Below are positions 3,413 to 48,411 of a stretch of 64,000 bases of DNA, in pieces (the first letter of the stretch is position 1; every line of letters starts with the position of its first letter). The notes beneath the pieces are model-generated. The model saw nothing but the letters and a program-made list of their open reading frames with translations, had not been told where the DNA came from and made no database searches. Origin of the DNA: an uncultured Candidatus Saccharibacteria bacterium (GTDB lineage Bacteria; Patescibacteriota; Minisyncoccia; Phycocordibacterales; UBA9973); NCBI GenBank assembly GCA_964482735.1, contig CAYZYV010000004.1, positions 65,737 to 129,736 of the forward strand. The letters are read 5' to 3'. A program made the translations under genes and the position numbers.

Positions 3413-4066
3413 ATGATTTACCTTGTTTATGGTAATGATAATAAAAAAAAGAATGCCTTTGTCAAAAAAGTGTCAAAGGTTTTTTCTGTGGTTATCTTAG
3501 AGTCAGAAGATCTTGATAAAGAAAGCATTCTTTCCTATACATCAGCAAACAGTCTATTTGGTGAAAAAACCGCTGTAATTATAGAGGGGCTAACTAAAAC
3601 TAATATAGAATTTAAAAACAATGAATTAGACATGCTTTCTAAGTCTAGCAATGCTTTTATTTTAATTGAAGACAAACTCTTAGCGCCAGAAGTTAGTAAG
3701 TTTAAAAAGTTTGCAACCATAGAAGTATTCAACGAAGAGAAAGCCACCAGTAAGAGTGATTCAAAAGAAAATTTTGCAATAGCAGAAAGTTTTGGTTCCA
3801 GAAATAAATTTAAGACATGGTTGATATACAAAGACCTAATTTCAAAAAATACTACACCAGAAGAAATCAGCGGAATACTCTTTTGGAAAATAAAAATGTT
3901 AATGACTTATCAAAATAAAAATTTTACAAAAGAAGAACTAAAAAAGATTTCAAGCAACCTCGTTTCTTTATATCATGACGCCCATCTAGGGAAGAGGGAC
4001 TTTTCTATTGGTTTAGAGCAGTTTATACTATCGTCTCTTAATAAAAACCAAAAAGAAAAGGCCTAG
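3413..4066 (+). CDS. holA: Putative DNA polymerase III delta subunit (HolA-like)
   Basis: 217 aa with an N-terminal (M)IYLVYGND start typical of delta subunits, directly after polA. Weak similarity only. Confidence 0.4.
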   Translation: MIYLVYGNDNKKKNAFVKKVSKVFSVVILESEDLDKESILSYTSANSLFGEKTAVIIEGLTKTNIEFKNNELDMLSKSSNAFILIEDKLLAPEVSKFKKFATIEVFNEEKATSKSDSKENFAIAESFGSRNKFKTWLIYKDLISKNTTPEEISGILFWKIKMLMTYQNKNFTKEELKKISSNLVSLYHDAHLGKRDFSIGLEQFILSSLNKNQKEKA

Positions 4067-4388
4067 GAGTCAGCCCTCAATTCTTTGAGAAATGGCTCCT
4101 AAGCCTTTGCTTAATTTTTTAATGAAAGAACATGTCCTTAATCGGACAAAATATATAATGTACTGTTTGTTTGTGTTTAAATCTTCTCGATTTGTTTTTT
4201 GTGAACCCTATTATCGTCGGGTGAACGTTCTTGAAGATTTTTATTACAAATTACTCTTAAATATATTATAACATTATTAATATTTTAGTGCAACTAAATT
4301 ATTGGGACAAAAAGAATATATGCCCAAAGTTGTTGATTTTTGTTGCAGATTATGGTAATTTATAAGGGTTAATTCGTTAACAGAAAAC

Positions 4389-4402
4389 ATCCGCCCGTAG
4401 CT
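4389..4402 (+). repeat. 14-nt direct duplicate of the tRNA-Lys 5' end (atccgcccgtagct), 61 nt upstream of the real copy
   Basis: Identical 14-mer at 4389..4402 and 4464..4477; the second copy spans the tRNA start. Confidence 0.6.
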
Positions 4403-4465
4403 GTTTTGGTAGGTCTAAAGCTTCTACTGGTCACAGTGTTAGTTTTTGAAATAATGTTTATATAT

Positions 4466-4538
4466 CCGCCCGTAGCTCAGATGGTAGAGCAGCTCCCTTT
4501 TAAGGAGATGGTCGTAGGTTCGATTCCTACCGGGCGGA
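4466..4538 (+). tRNA. tRNA-Lys (anticodon TTT)
   Basis: Cloverleaf: acceptor CCGCCCG/CGGGCGG, D-arm GCTC-AGATGGTA-GAGC, anticodon loop CTTTTAA, T-arm GTAGG-TTCGATT-CCTAC, discriminator A. CCA is not encoded. Confidence 0.85.
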
Positions 4539-4544
4539 CTACAT

Positions 4545-4573
4545 AAAAAAACACCTTTAGTGGGTGTTTTTTT
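4545..4573. terminator. Rho-independent terminator hairpin (bidirectional)
   Basis: aaaaaaacacc-tttagt-gggtgttttttt: stem ACACC/GGTGT with flanking A and T runs. Confidence 0.6.
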
Positions 4574-4576
4574 ATG

Positions 4577-4738
4577 TGGTCCGCCCGAGCAAGCAAACTG
4601 TTTTGCTTGCGTGTAGGAATCGAACGGCGGAGTCATATTTTTTCACCAGAGAAAATAGACGAGCGGGTGACCAGACAAAACTTTTTGACGAAAAAGTTTT
4701 AGTCGAGGTCGATAAGCGTACTCGCGGTCCTACCGGGC
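4577..4738 (-). ncRNA. Candidate structured small RNA, copy A (paralog of 13083..13230); tRNA-like 3' end with encoded ACCA
   Basis: A 68-nt core (4667..4734) is about 95 percent identical to 13083..13150 in inverted orientation. The 5' GGTAGGA can pair with the 3' TCCTAC next to a GTTCGATTCC T-loop-like motif. The 3' tail is hairpin + CGGGCGG + ACCA. The locus sits between terminators. Confidence 0.35.
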
Positions 4739-4828
4739 TATTATCTCAAAAAACAGTGATCTTTAGGATAATTCTAGTTTGAGCAAGCAAATTTAAAAAA
4801 GGATAAATATAAATTATATTTATCCTTT

Positions 4829-5275
4829 TTACCACACAACACGTCCTGAAGCTTTCCCTTTGCTTCTTGTCTCAATTTCTTTCACTGTCTGAAGCCCAAG
4901 AGGAATAAGTTTAAACCCATTTAAACCCCTTGTCTTTTTATTATCGAAATCAATTATTGAATAATCGGTTCCTTTATATTTAAAAACATAACAGTTTACA
5001 GAGTCTGAGACGTTATCCTTAAAGGCATCAGCGACAATATTGGACACTTTTTTAACATGAGAGCTTTCTTCCCCATATATAACTATGGAATAGTAGCCCT
5101 TATCTCCTTCAATCCAGAATCTTATAGTGGATAATTTTTCTTTCTTGAAAGAAATTTTTCCTGCTATAAACACATCCTTGTTTGAGGGATCTACTTTGTC
5201 TCTTTTTCCCCAGGGAGAGAACCCTGTTAATATTAATTCTCCAAGAATCAACATTAAAAAAATTTTTTTACTCAC
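4829..5275 (-). CDS. Hypothetical secreted protein (N-terminal signal peptide)
   Basis: 148-aa ORF with a hydrophobic N-terminus, and a terminator hairpin at 4797..4832. Confidence 0.45.
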   Translation of the reverse strand: MSKKIFLMLILGELILTGFSPWGKRDKVDPSNKDVFIAGKISFKKEKLSTIRFWIEGDKGYYSIVIYGEESSHVKKVSNIVADAFKDNVSDSVNCYVFKYKGTDYSIIDFDNKKTRGLNGFKLIPLGLQTVKEIETRSKGKASGRVVW

Positions 5276-13037: not shown

Positions 13038-13082
13038 TTAAAAGACTGGGTAGATCCCAGTCTTTTAAGTTAGGGGGATACT

Positions 13083-13230
13083 GGCAGGACCGCGAGTATA
13101 CTTATCGACCTCGACTAAAACTTTTTCGTCAAAAAGTTTTGTCTGGTCACTCTAAGCCGTGCTTGGCCAAGCAATAAGCCAGCTCCTCCGACCTGGGTCG
13201 GAGTCAGGTTCGATTCCTGCGGATATCAGT
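13083..13230 (+). ncRNA. Candidate structured small RNA, copy B (paralog of 4577..4738)
   Basis: The 68-nt core matches copy A. 5' GGCAGGA pairs with 3' TCCTGC next to GTTCGATTCC, a compensatory T/C-A/G change relative to copy A. It lies between the terminators at 13039..13068 and 13231..13279. Confidence 0.35.
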
Positions 13231-13279
13231 AAAACAGTAAGACCCAAATATCTTCATATCTGGGTCAAACTGTTTTATG
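13231..13279. terminator. Bidirectional terminator hairpin
   Basis: gtaaaacagtaa-gaccca-loop-tgggtc-aaactgtttta nested inverted repeats. Confidence 0.5.
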
Positions 13280-13280
13280 T

Positions 13281-13397
13281 GATCCCGGCAGGAATCGAAC
13301 CTGCATCATAACTTCCGCAAAGTTACGTCCTATCCCCGCCCGACTGGAACGACCACTAATCTTGTCCAGTCGTTCGGGCGGGCATTGAATGACAACG
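13281..13397 (-). pseudogene. Partial tRNA-Arg-like copy (D-arm to 3' end, lacks 5' acceptor strand) carrying a 48-nt GC hairpin insert in the D-loop
   Basis: Anticodon arm TAACT-TTGCGGA-AGTTA, T-arm GCAGG-TTCGATT-CCTGC, and 3' CGGGATC-A. Insert 13336..13383 ccgcccga...tcgttcgggcgggc. Confidence 0.5.
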
Positions 13398-13401
13398 CTT
13401 G

Positions 13402-13473
13402 TGCTCTCAGTAGGAATCGAACCTACATCATAACTTCCGCAAAGTTACGTTCTATCCATTGAACTATGAGAGC
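13402..13473 (-). tRNA. tRNA-Arg (anticodon GCG as read from the loop)
   Basis: Perfect cloverleaf on the minus strand: GCTCTCA-TA-GTTC-AATGGATA-GAAC-G-TAACT-TTGCGGA-AGTTA-TGAT-GTAGG-TTCGATT-CCTAC-TGAGAGC-A. Confidence 0.75.
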
Positions 13474-26362: not shown

Positions 26363-26579
26363 AACAAGGCAGAGACCGTTGAACCAAAAACTCAACGGTC
26401 TTTTTGTATCTAATTAACTTTTCGATTCCTTGGACCATAATTTGGTCAGGAATAATTTTGTTGTCGTCACAACAAAATTTTCACGACCCTGACTCGCGAT
26501 TTTGTCCGTTGACAAAATTATCGCTCCGTCTCACAAAAGCAAAAAAGAGCAAAGAAGTTTGCTCTTTTTAAATAGAACA

Positions 26580-26705
26580 GGGTGATCACGAGTCACTAAA
26601 TATTTTGCTTCAAGTATTCTCAAAATATGTAAGTGCTCGCGACCCCGGCTCATGGTTTCGTCTGCTGACGAAACATCACTGCGCCCGCACAAACTGCCCG
26701 CAGAT
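26580..26705. other. GC-enriched structured intergenic segment (possible ncRNA, unassigned)
   Basis: The local GC content is clearly above the flanks, with several stem-loops (gtttcgtctgctgacgaaac, gcagataaagaagtttatctgc). No family was identified. Confidence 0.2.
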
Positions 26706-26737
26706 AAAGAAGTTTATCTGCTTTTTGCAATTTGTGC

Positions 26738-26765
26738 CCCCGCGAGGAATCGAACATTACATGTT
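26738..26765 (-). repeat. Duplicated 3' fragment of tRNA-Arg(TCT) (T-loop plus acceptor 3' strand)
   Basis: gtgcccccgcgaggaatcgaac repeats 26879..26901 exactly, and no upstream tRNA body accompanies it. Confidence 0.5.
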
Positions 26766-26875
26766 CAGTGCAGGTTATTGATATTTTATTTCGCTAGCTC
26801 ATAAAATATCTAATTAACCTTTTCGATTCCTTGGACCACAAAAAAATTACCGGCATAAAACCGATAATTTTTTCA

Positions 26876-26950
26876 TGGTGCCCCCGCGAGGAATCGAACC
26901 TCGAATAACGGCTTAGAAGTCCGCAGTTATATCCATTTAACTACAGGGGC
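26876..26950 (-). tRNA. tRNA-Arg (anticodon TCT), CCA encoded
   Basis: Acceptor GCCCCTG/CGGGGGC, anticodon loop CTTCTAA, T-arm CGAGG-TTCGATT-CCTCG, 3' ACCA. Confidence 0.75.
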
Positions 26951-45756: not shown

Positions 45757-46536
45757 TTGTATAATAAAACTATGATTAAGAATTATAAAAACACTAATAA
45801 TGCCTTTACTCTCATCGAACTCCTCGTCGTCGTCGCAATCATCGGAATACTCTCCTCAGTAGTCATCACATCACTAAACTCTGCAAGAGAAAAGAGCAAG
45901 ATTGCTTCTATTAAATCCACCTTAAAACAACTATACAACCAAGCTGCCATCAATCAAGTAGAAAATGGTAGTTTTACTGGATCTAATCCTTCATATTCAA
46001 ACTTAACCTGTTCTGGCAACTTAGCTCCAATAATTAAACCACTAGAAGACCAGGGAATAATAGTTAAATGCTTTAGTTTCTATGGAAGTCCCTATGGAGG
46101 AAATTATACAGGAGACGATTATAACAGATTCGCCGCCACGGCCCTCATCTACGACACAGGAGAACTCAAAGCATGGTCTGTAGATGAAAACGGTGTAGTT
46201 AAATGGGATACACAAGGAGTAAACTCAACAGGAGCTTTTGTTACCCCTGACATTACAGCCTCATGGACTAATGCTCAAAACAGATGTGCTTTATCTGGTG
46301 GACGTCTCCCTTCTATTGAACAATTGAGAACTCTATCTCATGCATGGTATTCTAAAGCTAATACTGATGGAGATGTAGACCCTTGGGCACCTCTTGGTTT
46401 CGTAGCAAGCATCTACTGGTCTTCTACCCCCGTTCCGTCGTCGCCTACTACGCTCGCTTACGGCCAGATCATGGCCTATGGTAGCTTGACCTCCTACAGT
46501 CAGACTCTCGGGTACTATGTTCGCTGTGTTAGGTAG
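45757..46536 (+). CDS. DGR2 variable (target) protein: type IV pilin-like N-terminus plus C-terminal lectin/FGE-like domain carrying VR2
   Basis: AFTLIELLVVVAIIGILSSVV prepilin motif, and a C-terminal ...YWSSTPVPSSPTTLAYGQIMAYGSLTSYSQTLGYYVRCVR encoded by VR2. Confidence 0.8.
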   Translation: MYNKTMIKNYKNTNNAFTLIELLVVVAIIGILSSVVITSLNSAREKSKIASIKSTLKQLYNQAAINQVENGSFTGSNPSYSNLTCSGNLAPIIKPLEDQGIIVKCFSFYGSPYGGNYTGDDYNRFAATALIYDTGELKAWSVDENGVVKWDTQGVNSTGAFVTPDITASWTNAQNRCALSGGRLPSIEQLRTLSHAWYSKANTDGDVDPWAPLGFVASIYWSSTPVPSSPTTLAYGQIMAYGSLTSYSQTLGYYVRCVR

Positions 46537-46556
46537 TAGTGTGTTCGCCTAGAATT
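46391..46556 (+). repeat. DGR2 variable repeat (VR2), which extends 20 nt past the stop codon (IMH-like region)
   Basis: The 166-nt alignment to TR2 has 19 mismatches, and every one of them is at a TR adenine. Confidence 0.85.
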
Positions 46557-46565
46557 CATTATTAC

Positions 46566-46630
46566 ATCCCGACTTTATGTCGGGACATTCTCTCTCGAAT
46601 GACTCCGACGTAAGGAGGAGCATTCGAGAG
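46566..46630. promoter_or_regulatory. Two GC hairpins immediately 3' of VR2 (DGR homing-associated stem-loops)
   Basis: tcccgac-tttat-gtcggga, and the 12-bp stem ctctctcgaatg...cattcgagagag. Confidence 0.5.
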
Positions 46631-46635
46631 AGGGC

Positions 46636-47076
46636 TTGTCGTTTATGTCTATTTATTCTAATCTTCCAATATACAACAATACATTTTCATTGTTAAAAGA
46701 ACTATACATAAGAGTTCCTAAATTTAGTAAAGAATATAAATATCTTCTAGGGGAGAAAATGATTAAATGCTGTGTGGACAGTCTTGTGTTAATTAATCAA
46801 ATTAGTTCAAGTAAAGAAAGGGTCGAAAGAATAAATCTTTTGATGAGATTAGAAGATAACATGAATGTACTAATGGTGCATGTCCGAATAGCTAATGAAC
46901 TCAATCAATTAGTTAAAAAGGATAATTATTTCTTTTTATCTCAAAAAATAATAGAAATTTTAAATCAAGCAGAAAATTGGAAAAAGTTTCTTCAGAAGAA
47001 GAAATGTTCCCAGAATTGCACCTCTGATGGTAGTGCAAGTGTGGATAAAAAAATTCCTCTCCCCACCCCTTGTTAA
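46636..47076 (+). CDS. avd: DGR accessory variability determinant (Avd-like) of DGR2
   Basis: 146-aa helical protein located between the target gene and TR2-RT2. The C-terminal IEILNQAENW aligns with the bAvd EVGRILGSW region. Confidence 0.6.
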   Translation: MSFMSIYSNLPIYNNTFSLLKELYIRVPKFSKEYKYLLGEKMIKCCVDSLVLINQISSSKERVERINLLMRLEDNMNVLMVHVRIANELNQLVKKDNYFFLSQKIIEILNQAENWKKFLQKKKCSQNCTSDGSASVDKKIPLPTPC

Positions 47077-47135
47077 AAGATCTATCACTTTAGACAAGGG
47101 ATAAGAGGTTATCATGATTGAGTTGGGGAGACTAG

Positions 47136-47301
47136 CTCTTGGTTTCGTAGCAAACAACTACTGGTCTTCTACCCCCGTTCCGTCGTCGCCTACTACGCTC
47201 GCTTACAACCAGAACATGAACAATGGTAACTTGAACAACAACAGTCAGACTAACGGGAACTATGTTCGCTGTGTTAGGTAGAAGTGTGTTCGCCTAGAAT
47301 T
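47136..47301 (+). repeat. DGR2 template repeat (TR2)
   Basis: Intergenic between avd2 and RT2. It is rich in AAC codons (NNQNMNNGNLNNNSQTNGN) that appear mutated in VR2. Confidence 0.85.
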
Positions 47302-47337
47302 TTGTTTCCAATTTTCTGCTTGATTTAATATTTTAGA

Positions 47338-48411
47338 ATGACAATTTTCACAATTAAAAATATATATAAAGCATATAATGATTGCTTAAAACACAAGAAA
47401 AACACAACTAATGCTTTAAAATTTGAGCTAAACAGAGAGAAGAATTTGTATTCATTACTCAAAGATTTACAAAACAGAACTTACAAAATATCAAGACATA
47501 TATGCTTCGTGGTAACAGTGCCAACGGCTAGGGAAATATTTGCAGCTGATTTTCGAGATAGAATAATTCACCATGTACTATATAATGAGATAAGAGATTT
47601 ATTTGAAAGTAATTTCATTGAAGAATCATATGCTAATAGATTAGGCAAAGGGACTCATATGGCTGTTCGAAAATTAAGATATCATATAGCAAGAGGAGGA
47701 AAGGATGGTAGAAGATTATATTATTTAAAGATGGATATCAAGGGATTTTTCAGAAATATAGACAAAAATATTCTATACGAAGAAATGAAAATGATTATTG
47801 TGAGAAGTGACAAAGATAAATCGTGGAAAGACGAAATACTGTGGCTAACAAAAATGATTATTTTTCATGATCCAACATCTAATTATGTTTTCAAAGGGGC
47901 GAATAATACAAGAGGCGTTGTCCCTAAGCACAAATCTTTGTTTTATGGAGATAGAAATAAAGGTTTACCAATAGGGAATTTAACTAGCCAATTTTTTGCA
48001 AATATTTATTTAGACAAACTTGATCATTTTGTAAAAGAGGAATTAAAATTTTATCGCTATCTTAGATATGTTGATGATTTTATTATCCTAGATGAAGACA
48101 AAGAAAGGTTAGAAGAAACGATAAAAAAAATTGATCTATTTCTTAACCAGAAGTTAAATTTAAAATTGGCCCCCGATAAGATATTTCTAAGGCAGGTTAA
48201 TCATGGAATAGACTTTCTTGGTTATTATATTAAACCGACTCATACTCTAGTAAGAAGAAAGGTGGTTCGGAGGTTTAAAGACAAAATGTATAAAAATAAA
48301 AACAAAGAAGATGGCTTATACTCTATAAAATTTCTGTCTGTTATAAGATCTTATTTTGGACATTTCGAGCATGCAAATAGTTATAATTTGAGGAAAAAAT
48401 TAATAGGTTAG
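47338..48411 (+). CDS. DGR reverse transcriptase (RT2)
   Basis: 357 aa, with GLPIGNLTSQ and YVDD (RYVDDFIIL) motifs, and about 40 percent identical to RT1 across the finger/palm region. Confidence 0.85.
   Translation: MTIFTIKNIYKAYNDCLKHKKNTTNALKFELNREKNLYSLLKDLQNRTYKISRHICFVVTVPTAREIFAADFRDRIIHHVLYNEIRDLFESNFIEESYANRLGKGTHMAVRKLRYHIARGGKDGRRLYYLKMDIKGFFRNIDKNILYEEMKMIIVRSDKDKSWKDEILWLTKMIIFHDPTSNYVFKGANNTRGVVPKHKSLFYGDRNKGLPIGNLTSQFFANIYLDKLDHFVKEELKFYRYLRYVDDFIILDEDKERLEETIKKIDLFLNQKLNLKLAPDKIFLRQVNHGIDFLGYYIKPTHTLVRRKVVRRFKDKMYKNKNKEDGLYSIKFLSVIRSYFGHFEHANSYNLRKKLIG

Follow-up and report, generated by a model that had tools for sequence, protein, structure and literature searches.

The 64,000-nt stretch of a Candidatus Saccharibacteria genome analysed here (contig CAYZYV010000004.1; the window) holds two inverted copies, A and B, of a hairpin-rich intergenic locus with a tRNA-like end. 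Are these loci genes for a small structured RNA, or are they pieces of DNA that act as such? An initial annotation had proposed either a tRNA-like small RNA or a tRNA-derived mobile module. We find that A, B and a third locus, C, are members of a large family of palindromic modules of ∼140–190 bp that lie behind transfer RNA (tRNA) and transfer-messenger RNA (tmRNA) genes of Patescibacteria. The family is apparently undescribed, and our literature search found no account of it. We tentatively favour, at a probability of about 0.4, a reading in which the units are DNA-level insertion modules at tRNA and tmRNA 3′ ends with a recombinase supplied from elsewhere, so that the guess of a mobile module pointed in the right direction and came close to what the evidence shows. 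Patescibacteria (the candidate phyla radiation, CPR) account for a large share of bacterial diversity and have tiny genomes; to our knowledge, the mobile elements and non-coding RNAs recognized in them are few.

A module family behind tRNA genes

The resemblance of A and B is real and non-random. When each locus was queried against the window with blastn, exactly one other copy was returned, and the shared core spans 65 nt at 96.9% identity (4667–4731, minus strand, against 13086–13150, plus strand; E = 1e-27). In a MAFFT alignment the identity of the two copies reaches further, as GG[T/C]AGGACCGCGAGTA..CTTATCGACC...GGTCAC. The internal hairpin AAAACTTTTT-CGTC-AAAAAGTTTT is predicted in both, and both run into a divergent stretch and terminate in the T-loop-like segment GTTCGATTCCT[A/G]C, just as initially annotated. 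With at most one mismatch allowed, the motif GGTTCGANTCC has 11 occurrences in the window, where 1.6 would be expected. The long-range closing helix postulated for the two loci can pair in each (5′/3′ strands GGTAGGA/TCCTAC in A, GGCAGGA/TCCTGC in B); the fold of A closed by it reaches −53.3 kcal/mol (z = −3.5), and the fold of B is no better than its own shuffles (z = −1.5). The 3′ end of A does read TTCGATTCCTAC-hairpin-CGGGCGG-ACCA, a terminus that can also be written ...CCTAC-hairpin-CGGGCGGACCA. Both loci are intergenic, with terminator-like hairpins on their borders.

Units A, B and C lie behind three of the eight tRNA genes of the window. Their parts and neighbours are given below; bit scores for units refer to R1, a covariance model built from a 57-sequence MAFFT alignment (A2).

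4466..4539, plus strand: tRNA-Lys(UUU), the source of the unit A arms (ARAGORN; Rfam, 69.8 bits)
4542..4576, no strand: bidirectional terminator-like hairpin (A-run, stem, T-run) common to tRNA-Lys and unit A (sequence)
4579..4740, minus strand: unit A, complete and of the 'Y' subtype, in which hairpin hp1 is long (R1, full model, 78.2 bits, E = 5e-19)
4580..4624, minus strand: inverted copy of the 3′ part of tRNA-Lys that forms the inner arm of unit A (matches tRNA-Lys 5/5 and 7/7)
4632..4660, minus strand: variable hairpin hp2 (fold; the helix covaries across the family)
4669..4710, minus strand: long Y-type hp1, GACCTCGACTAAAACTTTTTCGTCAAAAAGTTTTGTCTGGTC (folds, family listing, model alignment)
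4709..4727, minus strand: near-invariant 19-mer CCGCGAGTACGCTTATCGA with hairpin hp0, GCG-AGUA-CGC (exact or one-step variants at at least 120 metagenome loci)
4728..4740, minus strand: TAGCCCG-GTAGG-A, which forms the outer arm of unit A (the 3′ end of tRNA-Lys in reverse complement)
13077..13235, plus strand: unit B, a degenerate member (R1, 27.2 bits, E = 3e-5; alignment to A)
13241..13266, no strand: terminator hairpin separating unit B and the degenerate tRNA-Arg (terminator scan)
13280..13350, minus strand: degenerate tRNA-Arg(GCG), whose CCTGC CGGGATC is copied by unit B (Rfam, 31.3 bits; arm comparison)
13402–13473, minus strand: intact tRNA-Arg(GCG) (Rfam, 70.8 bits)
26731..26861, plus strand: unit C, a third, degenerate member that had not been flagged before (R1, 38 bits, E = 3.5e-8)

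Unit A is homologous from end to end with the unit at a tRNA-Arg gene in L003 and with those at tRNA-Lys genes in L027 and L128 (loci outside the window carry L numbers). On the plus strand its outer arm reads TCCTACCGGGC (4728–4738), an exact 11-nt direct repeat of 4525–4535, the 3′ end of tRNA-Lys. The inner arm consists of the T-loop TTCGATT, the T-stem 3′ strand CCTAC and the acceptor 3′ strand with the discriminator, CGGGCGGA, and is interrupted by the 23-nt hairpin h (4589–4611). The shared hairpin at 4542..4576 escaped a simple terminator scan because its stem has fewer than three G-C pairs. In most family members hp1 is a 6-bp stem with a UAC triloop, unlike the long A/U-rich hp1 of the A/B subtype; hp0 covaries in variants that lie beyond the search pattern (ATG..CAT in L128, GGC..GCC in L031). 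Unit B has decayed: hp0 is broken by a CG to TA change, hairpin h is gone and the acceptor copy (CCTGC/CGGGATCA in the degenerate tRNA-Arg) is eroded. It is also present in the close relative L042. Unit C has lost 14 nt of the 19-mer and is convergent to tRNA-Arg(UCU) (26876–26950, minus strand); its outer arm GTGCCCCCGCGAGGA is a 22-nt direct repeat of the 3′ end of that gene.

Outside the window, a strict core pattern found three loci in a genome collection, two of them labelled Patescibacteria (Saccharibacteria and Paceibacteria) and the third labelled Rhizobiaceae, where we suspect a binning error. Scanning metagenomes with the 19-mer CCGCGAGTAYRCTTATCGA yielded at least 120 loci, and all hosts that could be named were Patescibacteria (Paceibacteria, Moranbacteria, Kaiserbacteria/Minisyncoccota and Saccharibacteria). 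Among the 84 motif instances with any tRNA at their locus, 66 have a convergent tRNA or tmRNA gene within 400 nt downstream, mostly at 90–270 nt. The neighbours are tRNAs for Glu, Arg, Lys, Gln, Gly, His, Met, Pro and Leu and three tmRNAs (L082, L101 and L121). In the window, A is convergent to tRNA-Lys and B to the degenerate tRNA-Arg(GCG), in both cases with one bidirectional terminator hairpin between unit and tRNA. Read in the orientation of the initial annotation, a typical unit begins with the reverse complements of the acceptor 3′ strand and of the T-stem 3′ strand, followed by an A and the 19-mer (hp0); hp1 (6 bp, UAC triloop), CAGUAC, the variable hp2 and UUCGAUU come next, and then the T-stem 3′ strand, hairpin h (22–25 nt), the acceptor 3′ strand, the terminator and the convergent tRNA. 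Read in the direction of the tRNA, the gene is followed by the bidirectional terminator, an inverted copy of T-loop, T-stem and acceptor that is usually split by the 22–25-nt hairpin, the covarying hairpins with the 19-mer and, finally, a direct repeat of the last ∼14 nt of the tRNA (T60 to the discriminator), which often runs on into further trailer and a terminator-like hairpin. The 19-mer had no match in 2.9 million viral contigs, and a blastn comparison with phages matched the tRNA alone; an origin from a phage attP site was rejected on these grounds.

Several further observations concern the same loci. L063 has two 'orphan' units (1388–1522 and 4165–4326) with tRNA-Glu-type arms and terminators and no adjacent tRNA gene; the nearest tRNA-Glu lies ∼8 kb from the nearer of them, and the first is flanked by the short repeat GTTCAAATTGGAATCG. 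Unit B matches the decayed tRNA-Arg copy (13280–13350) and not the intact gene at 13402–13473. In the decayed copy the 5′ acceptor strand and the D-arm are swapped for one arm of a strong hairpin, CCCGCCCGA.CTGGA…TCCAG.TCGGGCGGG (13330–13390, in the degenerate tRNA-Arg region 13280–13400, minus strand). The anticodon GCG of tRNA-Arg occurs in the window (13279–13473) and at many other loci, among them L003, L004, L009, L017, L042 and L049; the usual bacterial form of this anticodon is ACG. The tRNA-Lys gene is preceded by a pseudo 5′ half of itself (CCGCCCGTAGCTGTTTTGGTAGGTCTAAAGCT; 4389–4425, plus strand), which is kept in relatives (L124, 3985–4020; L127, ∼4050–4075) and doubled in L126 (3973–4010 and 4048–4085), and tRNA-derived repeats therefore occur on the 5′ side as well. 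Just outside unit C, at ∼26540–26730 on the plus strand, there is a further conserved module, …GTCACTAAATATTTT…AAAATATGTAAGTGCTCGCGACCCC.GCTC…, homologous to a longer 'X-type' variant of the units (L002, 5490–5620 and 5960–6060; L006, L048, L057, L067 and L081); in the window it looks 5′-truncated.

The window itself belongs to a cellular genome of ∼33% GC. Its proteins include PolA, Fpg, MgtE and a HolA-like protein, and the closest relatives of the window proteins are labelled Paceibacteria and Moranbacteria. A 2.6-kb segment (45799–48400) is 92.6% identical to L002 (1274–3886), a contig of a metagenome-assembled genome labelled Saccharibacteria; given the Paceibacteria-like proteins of the window, this match could reflect horizontal transfer or mislabelled taxonomy.

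Arms, helices and strand signature

The arms of a unit follow the tRNA beside it. The inner arm matches the T stem of the neighbouring tRNA at 5/5 positions in 47 of 63 pairs and its acceptor at 7/7 in 37 of 63; for the outer arm the corresponding figures are 50 and 26 of 67. Compared with tRNAs of other loci, the arms match at only ∼2.5/5. One interior type is found beside different tRNAs with its arms switched to suit (Lys for unit A, Arg in L003 and L049, Glu in L106), and L003 has the full architecture of copy A, but a tRNA-Arg neighbour and Arg-type arms. A direct repeat of a tRNA 3′ segment next to an intact tRNA, as in an att-type junction, is present at A, at C and throughout the family. 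At 24 tRNA positions with a G·U pair or a mismatch, the two strands of the tRNA can be told apart: the outer (5′) arm agrees with the 3′ strand (as its reverse complement) in 20 and with the 5′ strand in none. The outer arm is therefore a direct repeat made at the level of DNA, and a retro-copy of a tRNA minihelix is ruled out.

Two arguments for a tRNA-like RNA lose their force here. The compensatory T:A versus C:G change in the closing helices of A and B had been taken as covariation; the change is real, but it merely follows tRNA-Lys versus tRNA-Arg, since the arms copy the T-stem and acceptor 3′ strand of their own neighbour, as they do in ∼65 other tRNA–unit pairs, and it is not independent covariation. 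The encoded CCA of copy A, put forward as a tRNA-like mark, is not conserved, and the closest relative, L027, lacks it and reads CGGGCGGACTACAT. The homologous copies, the structured and conserved element, the closing helix and the tRNA-derived 3′ part all stand, and the case for a tRNA-like small RNA as originally argued does not.

The Rfam search suggested to identify the element (tmRNA, Y_RNA/YrlA, tRNA-like) matched no model to it. Neither A nor B gave an Rfam 15 match at gathering cut-offs or at E ≤ 10, and eight typical units gave none at E ≤ 1; the same holds for the Y RNA and YrlA models in particular. ARAGORN called no tRNA or tmRNA at A or B and no tmRNA in the window, and neither ARAGORN nor Rfam called a tRNA over 4579–4740, 13077–13235 or 26731–26861. 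What cmscan did return at E ≤ 10 were chance tmRNA_permuted fragments (9.9–14.8 bits against a 47-bit cut-off), and these lay over real tRNAs and not over units. The ten open reading frames (ORFs) that flank A and B encode no TROVE domain, the ORFs of the window as a whole not having been searched systematically for it. Two other origins were considered and rejected. The group I tRNA introns of Patescibacteria, which sit at anticodon-loop position 35/36 (PMC13011429), are unrelated to the units and differ in insertion position. A coding remnant was suggested by L001, where the 19-mer is in frame with a serine recombinase, but the corresponding frame of the window has stops directly upstream.

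The A2 alignment supports six helices. In 99 units aligned to R1, to which the following counts refer, the four internal hairpins covary: 90.9% of cells are paired versus 62.8% in shuffles, and the covariation score is 0.612 versus 0.151 in shuffled and ∼0.1 in slid controls. Compensatory base-pair changes of the kind expected of a structured RNA are thus present, and the proposed test for covariation in homologues comes out positively for the internal hairpins; the change in the closing helix is no evidence of RNA covariation. The nature of the exceptions to pairing tells a different story. The non-acceptor helices hold 55 G·U and 63 A·C combinations; in 123 tRNAs of the same loci, whose acceptor and T stems were taken as a control, the counts are 73 and 7. 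The unit helices covary as Watson–Crick pairs only and lack the strand signature of an RNA, a large excess of G·U over A·C.

Strand choice by G·U counts and fold energies gives no clear answer and leans weakly to the direction of the tRNA. In 67 of 71 cores the strand opposite to the one initially annotated has the more stable fold, by ∼3 kcal/mol; fold-based G·U counts (72 versus 44) point slightly to the tRNA direction; and, with three subfamily-level columns removed, scattered A·C combinations outnumber G·U by ∼2:1 in the initially annotated orientation. A second T-loop on the other strand (GGTTCGATAAG) was dismissed as a feature: it is found only in the commonest hp1 variant and is lost once hp1 covaries. 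Units with a full repeat have bidirectional terminators within ∼10 nt on either side, which leaves no room for a promoter. Conservation is also high in the unpaired nucleotides CUUAUC, CAGUAC and ACGC and in the UAC triloop.

Tandem units, cargo and known systems

Units differ in number between related strains. L029 has three units and L097 one, in flanks that are 92–97% identical; L049 has two, and in L015 three of four tRNAs carry a unit. Arrays are seen in L002, L029 and L049. Many apparent arrays, such as the supposed cassette arrays of L015 and L087, proved to be separate tRNA–unit pairs. Outer units are often truncated; in L119 and L122 genes lie between them and the inner unit, in L127 they are nested, and contigs of relatives break at unit loci.

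The junction between tRNA and unit also takes up genes. L073 and L016 have flanks that are 99.9–100% identical, and L073 contains an 822-bp insertion directly after the ...GGGTCAC of tRNA-Glu (4341–5162; L016, 3414–3421). The insertion encodes a transglutaminase-like ORF and no recombinase, and ends in a remnant that resembles a shrunken unit and in the degenerate repeat AGGGCTCAC. L027, which is 98.5% identical to the window over the adjacent 4.5 kb, has 1.9 kb of extra DNA at the tRNA-Lys junction (763–2660, against position 4540 of the window) with an AAA-kinase-like gene, an SDR and a gene of unknown kind, again with no recombinase. In both cases the cargo sits between the 3′ end of the tRNA and the terminator of the unit. 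The units are themselves non-coding, so that an integrase inside the insert is lacking.

A separate observation concerns L001 (1–842), in which a large serine recombinase ORF that comprises the C-terminal two-thirds and lacks the Resolvase domain starts in frame inside a unit, directly after the perfect palindrome GCCACAGGTCCGACCTGTGGC within the unit hairpin, and is followed by restriction-modification genes. The palindrome is also found in units of L097 (∼1600–1740) and L118 (∼390–510). In these three loci it is a secondary insertion and not the origin of the motif; L001 may represent a serine-recombinase element with its att site inside its own gene.

Among known systems, the closest parallels are the att junctions of integrative elements that target tRNA and tmRNA genes, in which a block of identity runs from the T-loop to the 3′ end of the gene and islands accrete in tandem. 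Here, too, a direct repeat of a tRNA 3′ segment marks the limits of the insert and the tRNA stays intact, tmRNA genes are used as well, insertions are serial, and cargo that differs between strains lies exactly at the end of the tRNA. Unlike such junctions, the whole insert of a unit measures ∼190 bp and has no integrase; it includes the tRNA end in inverted form as well as a hairpin-rich core that is conserved. The same core occurs at ten or more tRNA species, and no viral contig holds the 19-mer. The attC sites of integrons are imperfect palindromes of ∼60–150 bp that act as DNA. Units share with attC arrays and CALINs the imperfect palindromes in which pairing rather than sequence is conserved. 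Arrays that sometimes have genes between the units may be a further likeness, many apparent ones being separate tRNA–unit pairs, and so would be a recombinase located elsewhere. They differ in lacking the GTTRRRY/RYYYAAC core, in arms that vary with the adjacent tRNA, in the invariant internal 19-mer and in being tied to tRNA genes instead of an attI/intI platform; no IntI was identified, and most units have no cassette.

REP and BIME (REPIN) sequences and MITEs resemble the units as short, non-autonomous, multi-copy intergenic palindromes near or acting as terminators at gene 3′ ends, and as sites of assembly breaks. The units, however, lie strictly at tRNA and tmRNA 3′ ends and have terminal repeats derived from the target, and no RAYT, transposase or autonomous partner and no classical target-site duplication was seen. 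With tRNA-like RNAs (the tmRNA domain, YrlA/Y RNAs, minihelices) they have in common an acceptor-like helix stacked on a T-stem-like helix and the TTCGATT motif, but they match no covariance model, the T-loop lies ∼100 nt from the 5′ strand of the T-stem, G·U pairs of the tRNA become Watson–Crick pairs in the units, a strand signature is absent and CCA is unconserved. A casposon-like arrangement of a 14-bp target duplication with terminal inverted repeats was also tried. The repeat length fits, but the tRNA-proximal end is unconserved and does not mirror the 19-mer end in inverted form, and we rejected it.

An insertion module or a small RNA

We tentatively read the units as DNA insertion modules because of the geometry of their repeats, the Watson–Crick-only covariation, the tight terminators, the tandem and truncated copies and the polymorphic cargo. 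A module would arrive by site-specific insertion at or just behind the boundary of T-loop and T-stem. The recombinase would act in trans, since the module encodes none. The two tRNA-derived arms and the internal hairpins would work as DNA, as a folded single strand or a cruciform, in the manner of att or attC sites, and the junction could then become a hotspot at which cargo genes or additional units insert. While the anatomy, the tracking of the tRNA, the family, the mode of covariation, the tandem units and the cargo at the tRNA end are observations, we infer the recombination mechanism, the trans-acting enzyme and the folding of DNA from them.

A number of points weigh against this reading. 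We found no clean pair of an empty and an occupied site for a unit itself, only for cargo and copy number. Within 6 kb of the units there were four serine-recombinase genes or fragments across 123 loci, and clustering of 1043 neighbouring ORFs revealed no recurrent recombinase or transposase partner. With no sequence conservation at its tRNA-proximal end, the module does not have two defined ends as a classical transposon would. This reading also gives no account of the re-matching of the inner, inverted arm to each new tRNA. In units without an acceptor repeat the sequence upstream is AT-rich and contains −10-like boxes, and copy A has TGAGATAAT upstream, at 4740–4748. The tRNA-Lys/unit pair is retained in relatives whose HolA is only 45–48% identical, and unit A is, by eye, ∼85–90% identical to the unit of L128; on sequence grounds, conservation near the level of a tRNA, unpaired nucleotides included, would fit a functional RNA at least as well. 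Finally, equal counts of G·U and A·C could also arise if copies of a few master elements had recently acquired neutral mutations.

The strongest competitor, doubtful in our judgement but a serious one, is a small structured RNA that is transcribed convergently to the tRNA, ends at the shared terminator and has arms that mimic the acceptor/T top half of its neighbour. RNase P, the enzymes of 3′ trimming and CCA addition or T-loop modifiers would process or bind such an RNA; the 19-mer, the UAC triloop and the hairpins would be its functional body, and the arms would be kept identical to the tRNA by gene conversion across the terminator-centred palindrome. It would account for the strong covariation of four helices, the conserved unpaired nucleotides, the persistence of the orthologous tRNA-Lys loci near the tRNA level despite the divergence of host proteins, the terminator that always follows the 3′ arm, the −10-like boxes upstream of copy A and of units without an acceptor repeat, and the better preservation of the inner acceptor copy (37 perfect versus 26 for the outer). 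It is at odds with the G·U:A·C ratio of 55:63 against 73:7 in tRNAs of the same loci, with the more stable fold of the opposite strand in 67 of 71 cores, with the upstream terminator within ∼10 nt of full-repeat units, which leaves no promoter space, and with a 5′ arm that repeats the 3′ strand of the tRNA as DNA. Nor does it sit well with the unconserved CCA, the several degenerate or truncated copies per genome (B, C and the outer units of L119, L122 and L127) or the lack of any Rfam match. What keeps this small-RNA explanation alive are the weak points of the module reading: the search for a recombinase partner, the re-matching of the inner arm, and a conservation, unpaired motifs included, that is close to that of tRNAs.

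Transcription from the other side, with the unit read through in the tRNA direction so that it forms a tRNA-like element in the trailer or regulates how the 3′ end of the tRNA matures, appears improbable. The 3′ end of such an RNA would be a perfect, uninterrupted copy of the last ∼14 nt of the tRNA followed by a terminator, and this strand has the more stable folds, slightly favourable fold-based G·U counts (72 versus 44) and, after removal of the three columns, the ∼2:1 excess of A·C in the initially annotated orientation to its credit. But the first terminator, with its run of seven Ts, looks efficient, the G·U bias is weak beside the 10:1 of tRNAs and could arise from strand-biased C-to-T mutation, and tandem units and cargo insertions are left unexplained. 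We give similarly little credence to a passive by-product without function, in which template switching at the palindromic terminator would re-copy the tRNA end first in inverted and then in direct orientation (an 'inverted triplication'), quasi-palindrome correction would keep the hairpins perfect and gene conversion between copies would homogenize the core. The forward–inverted–forward order of three tRNA-end copies centred on hairpins, the Watson–Crick-only pairing with G·U equal to A·C and the 65-nt core of A and B, 97% identical within differing flanks, are what it predicts. The internal core is, however, homologous at at least 120 loci in several classes of Patescibacteria, so the units share descent and are not independent replication errors, and the invariance of the 19-mer and the conservation of unpaired motifs imply that the units are under selection. 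Last, derivation from a known tRNA-like RNA, as a fragment or as a variant (a two-piece or fragmented tmRNA, a YrlA/Y RNA, an intron-containing or permuted tRNA), is effectively ruled out. All that speaks for it is the T-loop sequence and an acceptor-like 3′ strand; the former is explained by copying from the adjacent tRNA, as are all T-loop-like parts, ARAGORN and cmscan reported no tmRNA, Y RNA or tRNA over the units, and real tmRNA genes have adjoining units of their own (L082, L101 and L121).

Returning to the insertion modules, a bolder and, in our estimate, unlikely extension is that tRNA and tmRNA 3′ ends serve as attachment sites of a gene-acquisition system of Patescibacteria that has no recombinase in cis and uses a folded module of ∼140 nt as its recombination site. 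The two target-derived copies of T-stem and acceptor would be a self-matching 'address' which, together with the invariant 19-mer, would bring in and then mark small cassettes, an attC/attI-like logic built on tRNA ends. The alternative would be equally novel: each tRNA gene would have its own member of a class of small RNAs, mimicking the top half of that tRNA.

What is new about the units is their tie to tRNA and tmRNA 3′ ends and the rewriting of their ends to match each tRNA. Either way, they are worth modelling and masking in the annotation of CPR genomes, and tRNA-like fragments derived from them can mislead predictors of tRNAs and att sites. If they are RNAs, they would constitute a new class of tRNA mimics. 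If they are recombination modules, they would explain recurrent assembly breaks and would point to tRNA genes as places of horizontal gene gain in bacteria for which routes of this kind are poorly known.

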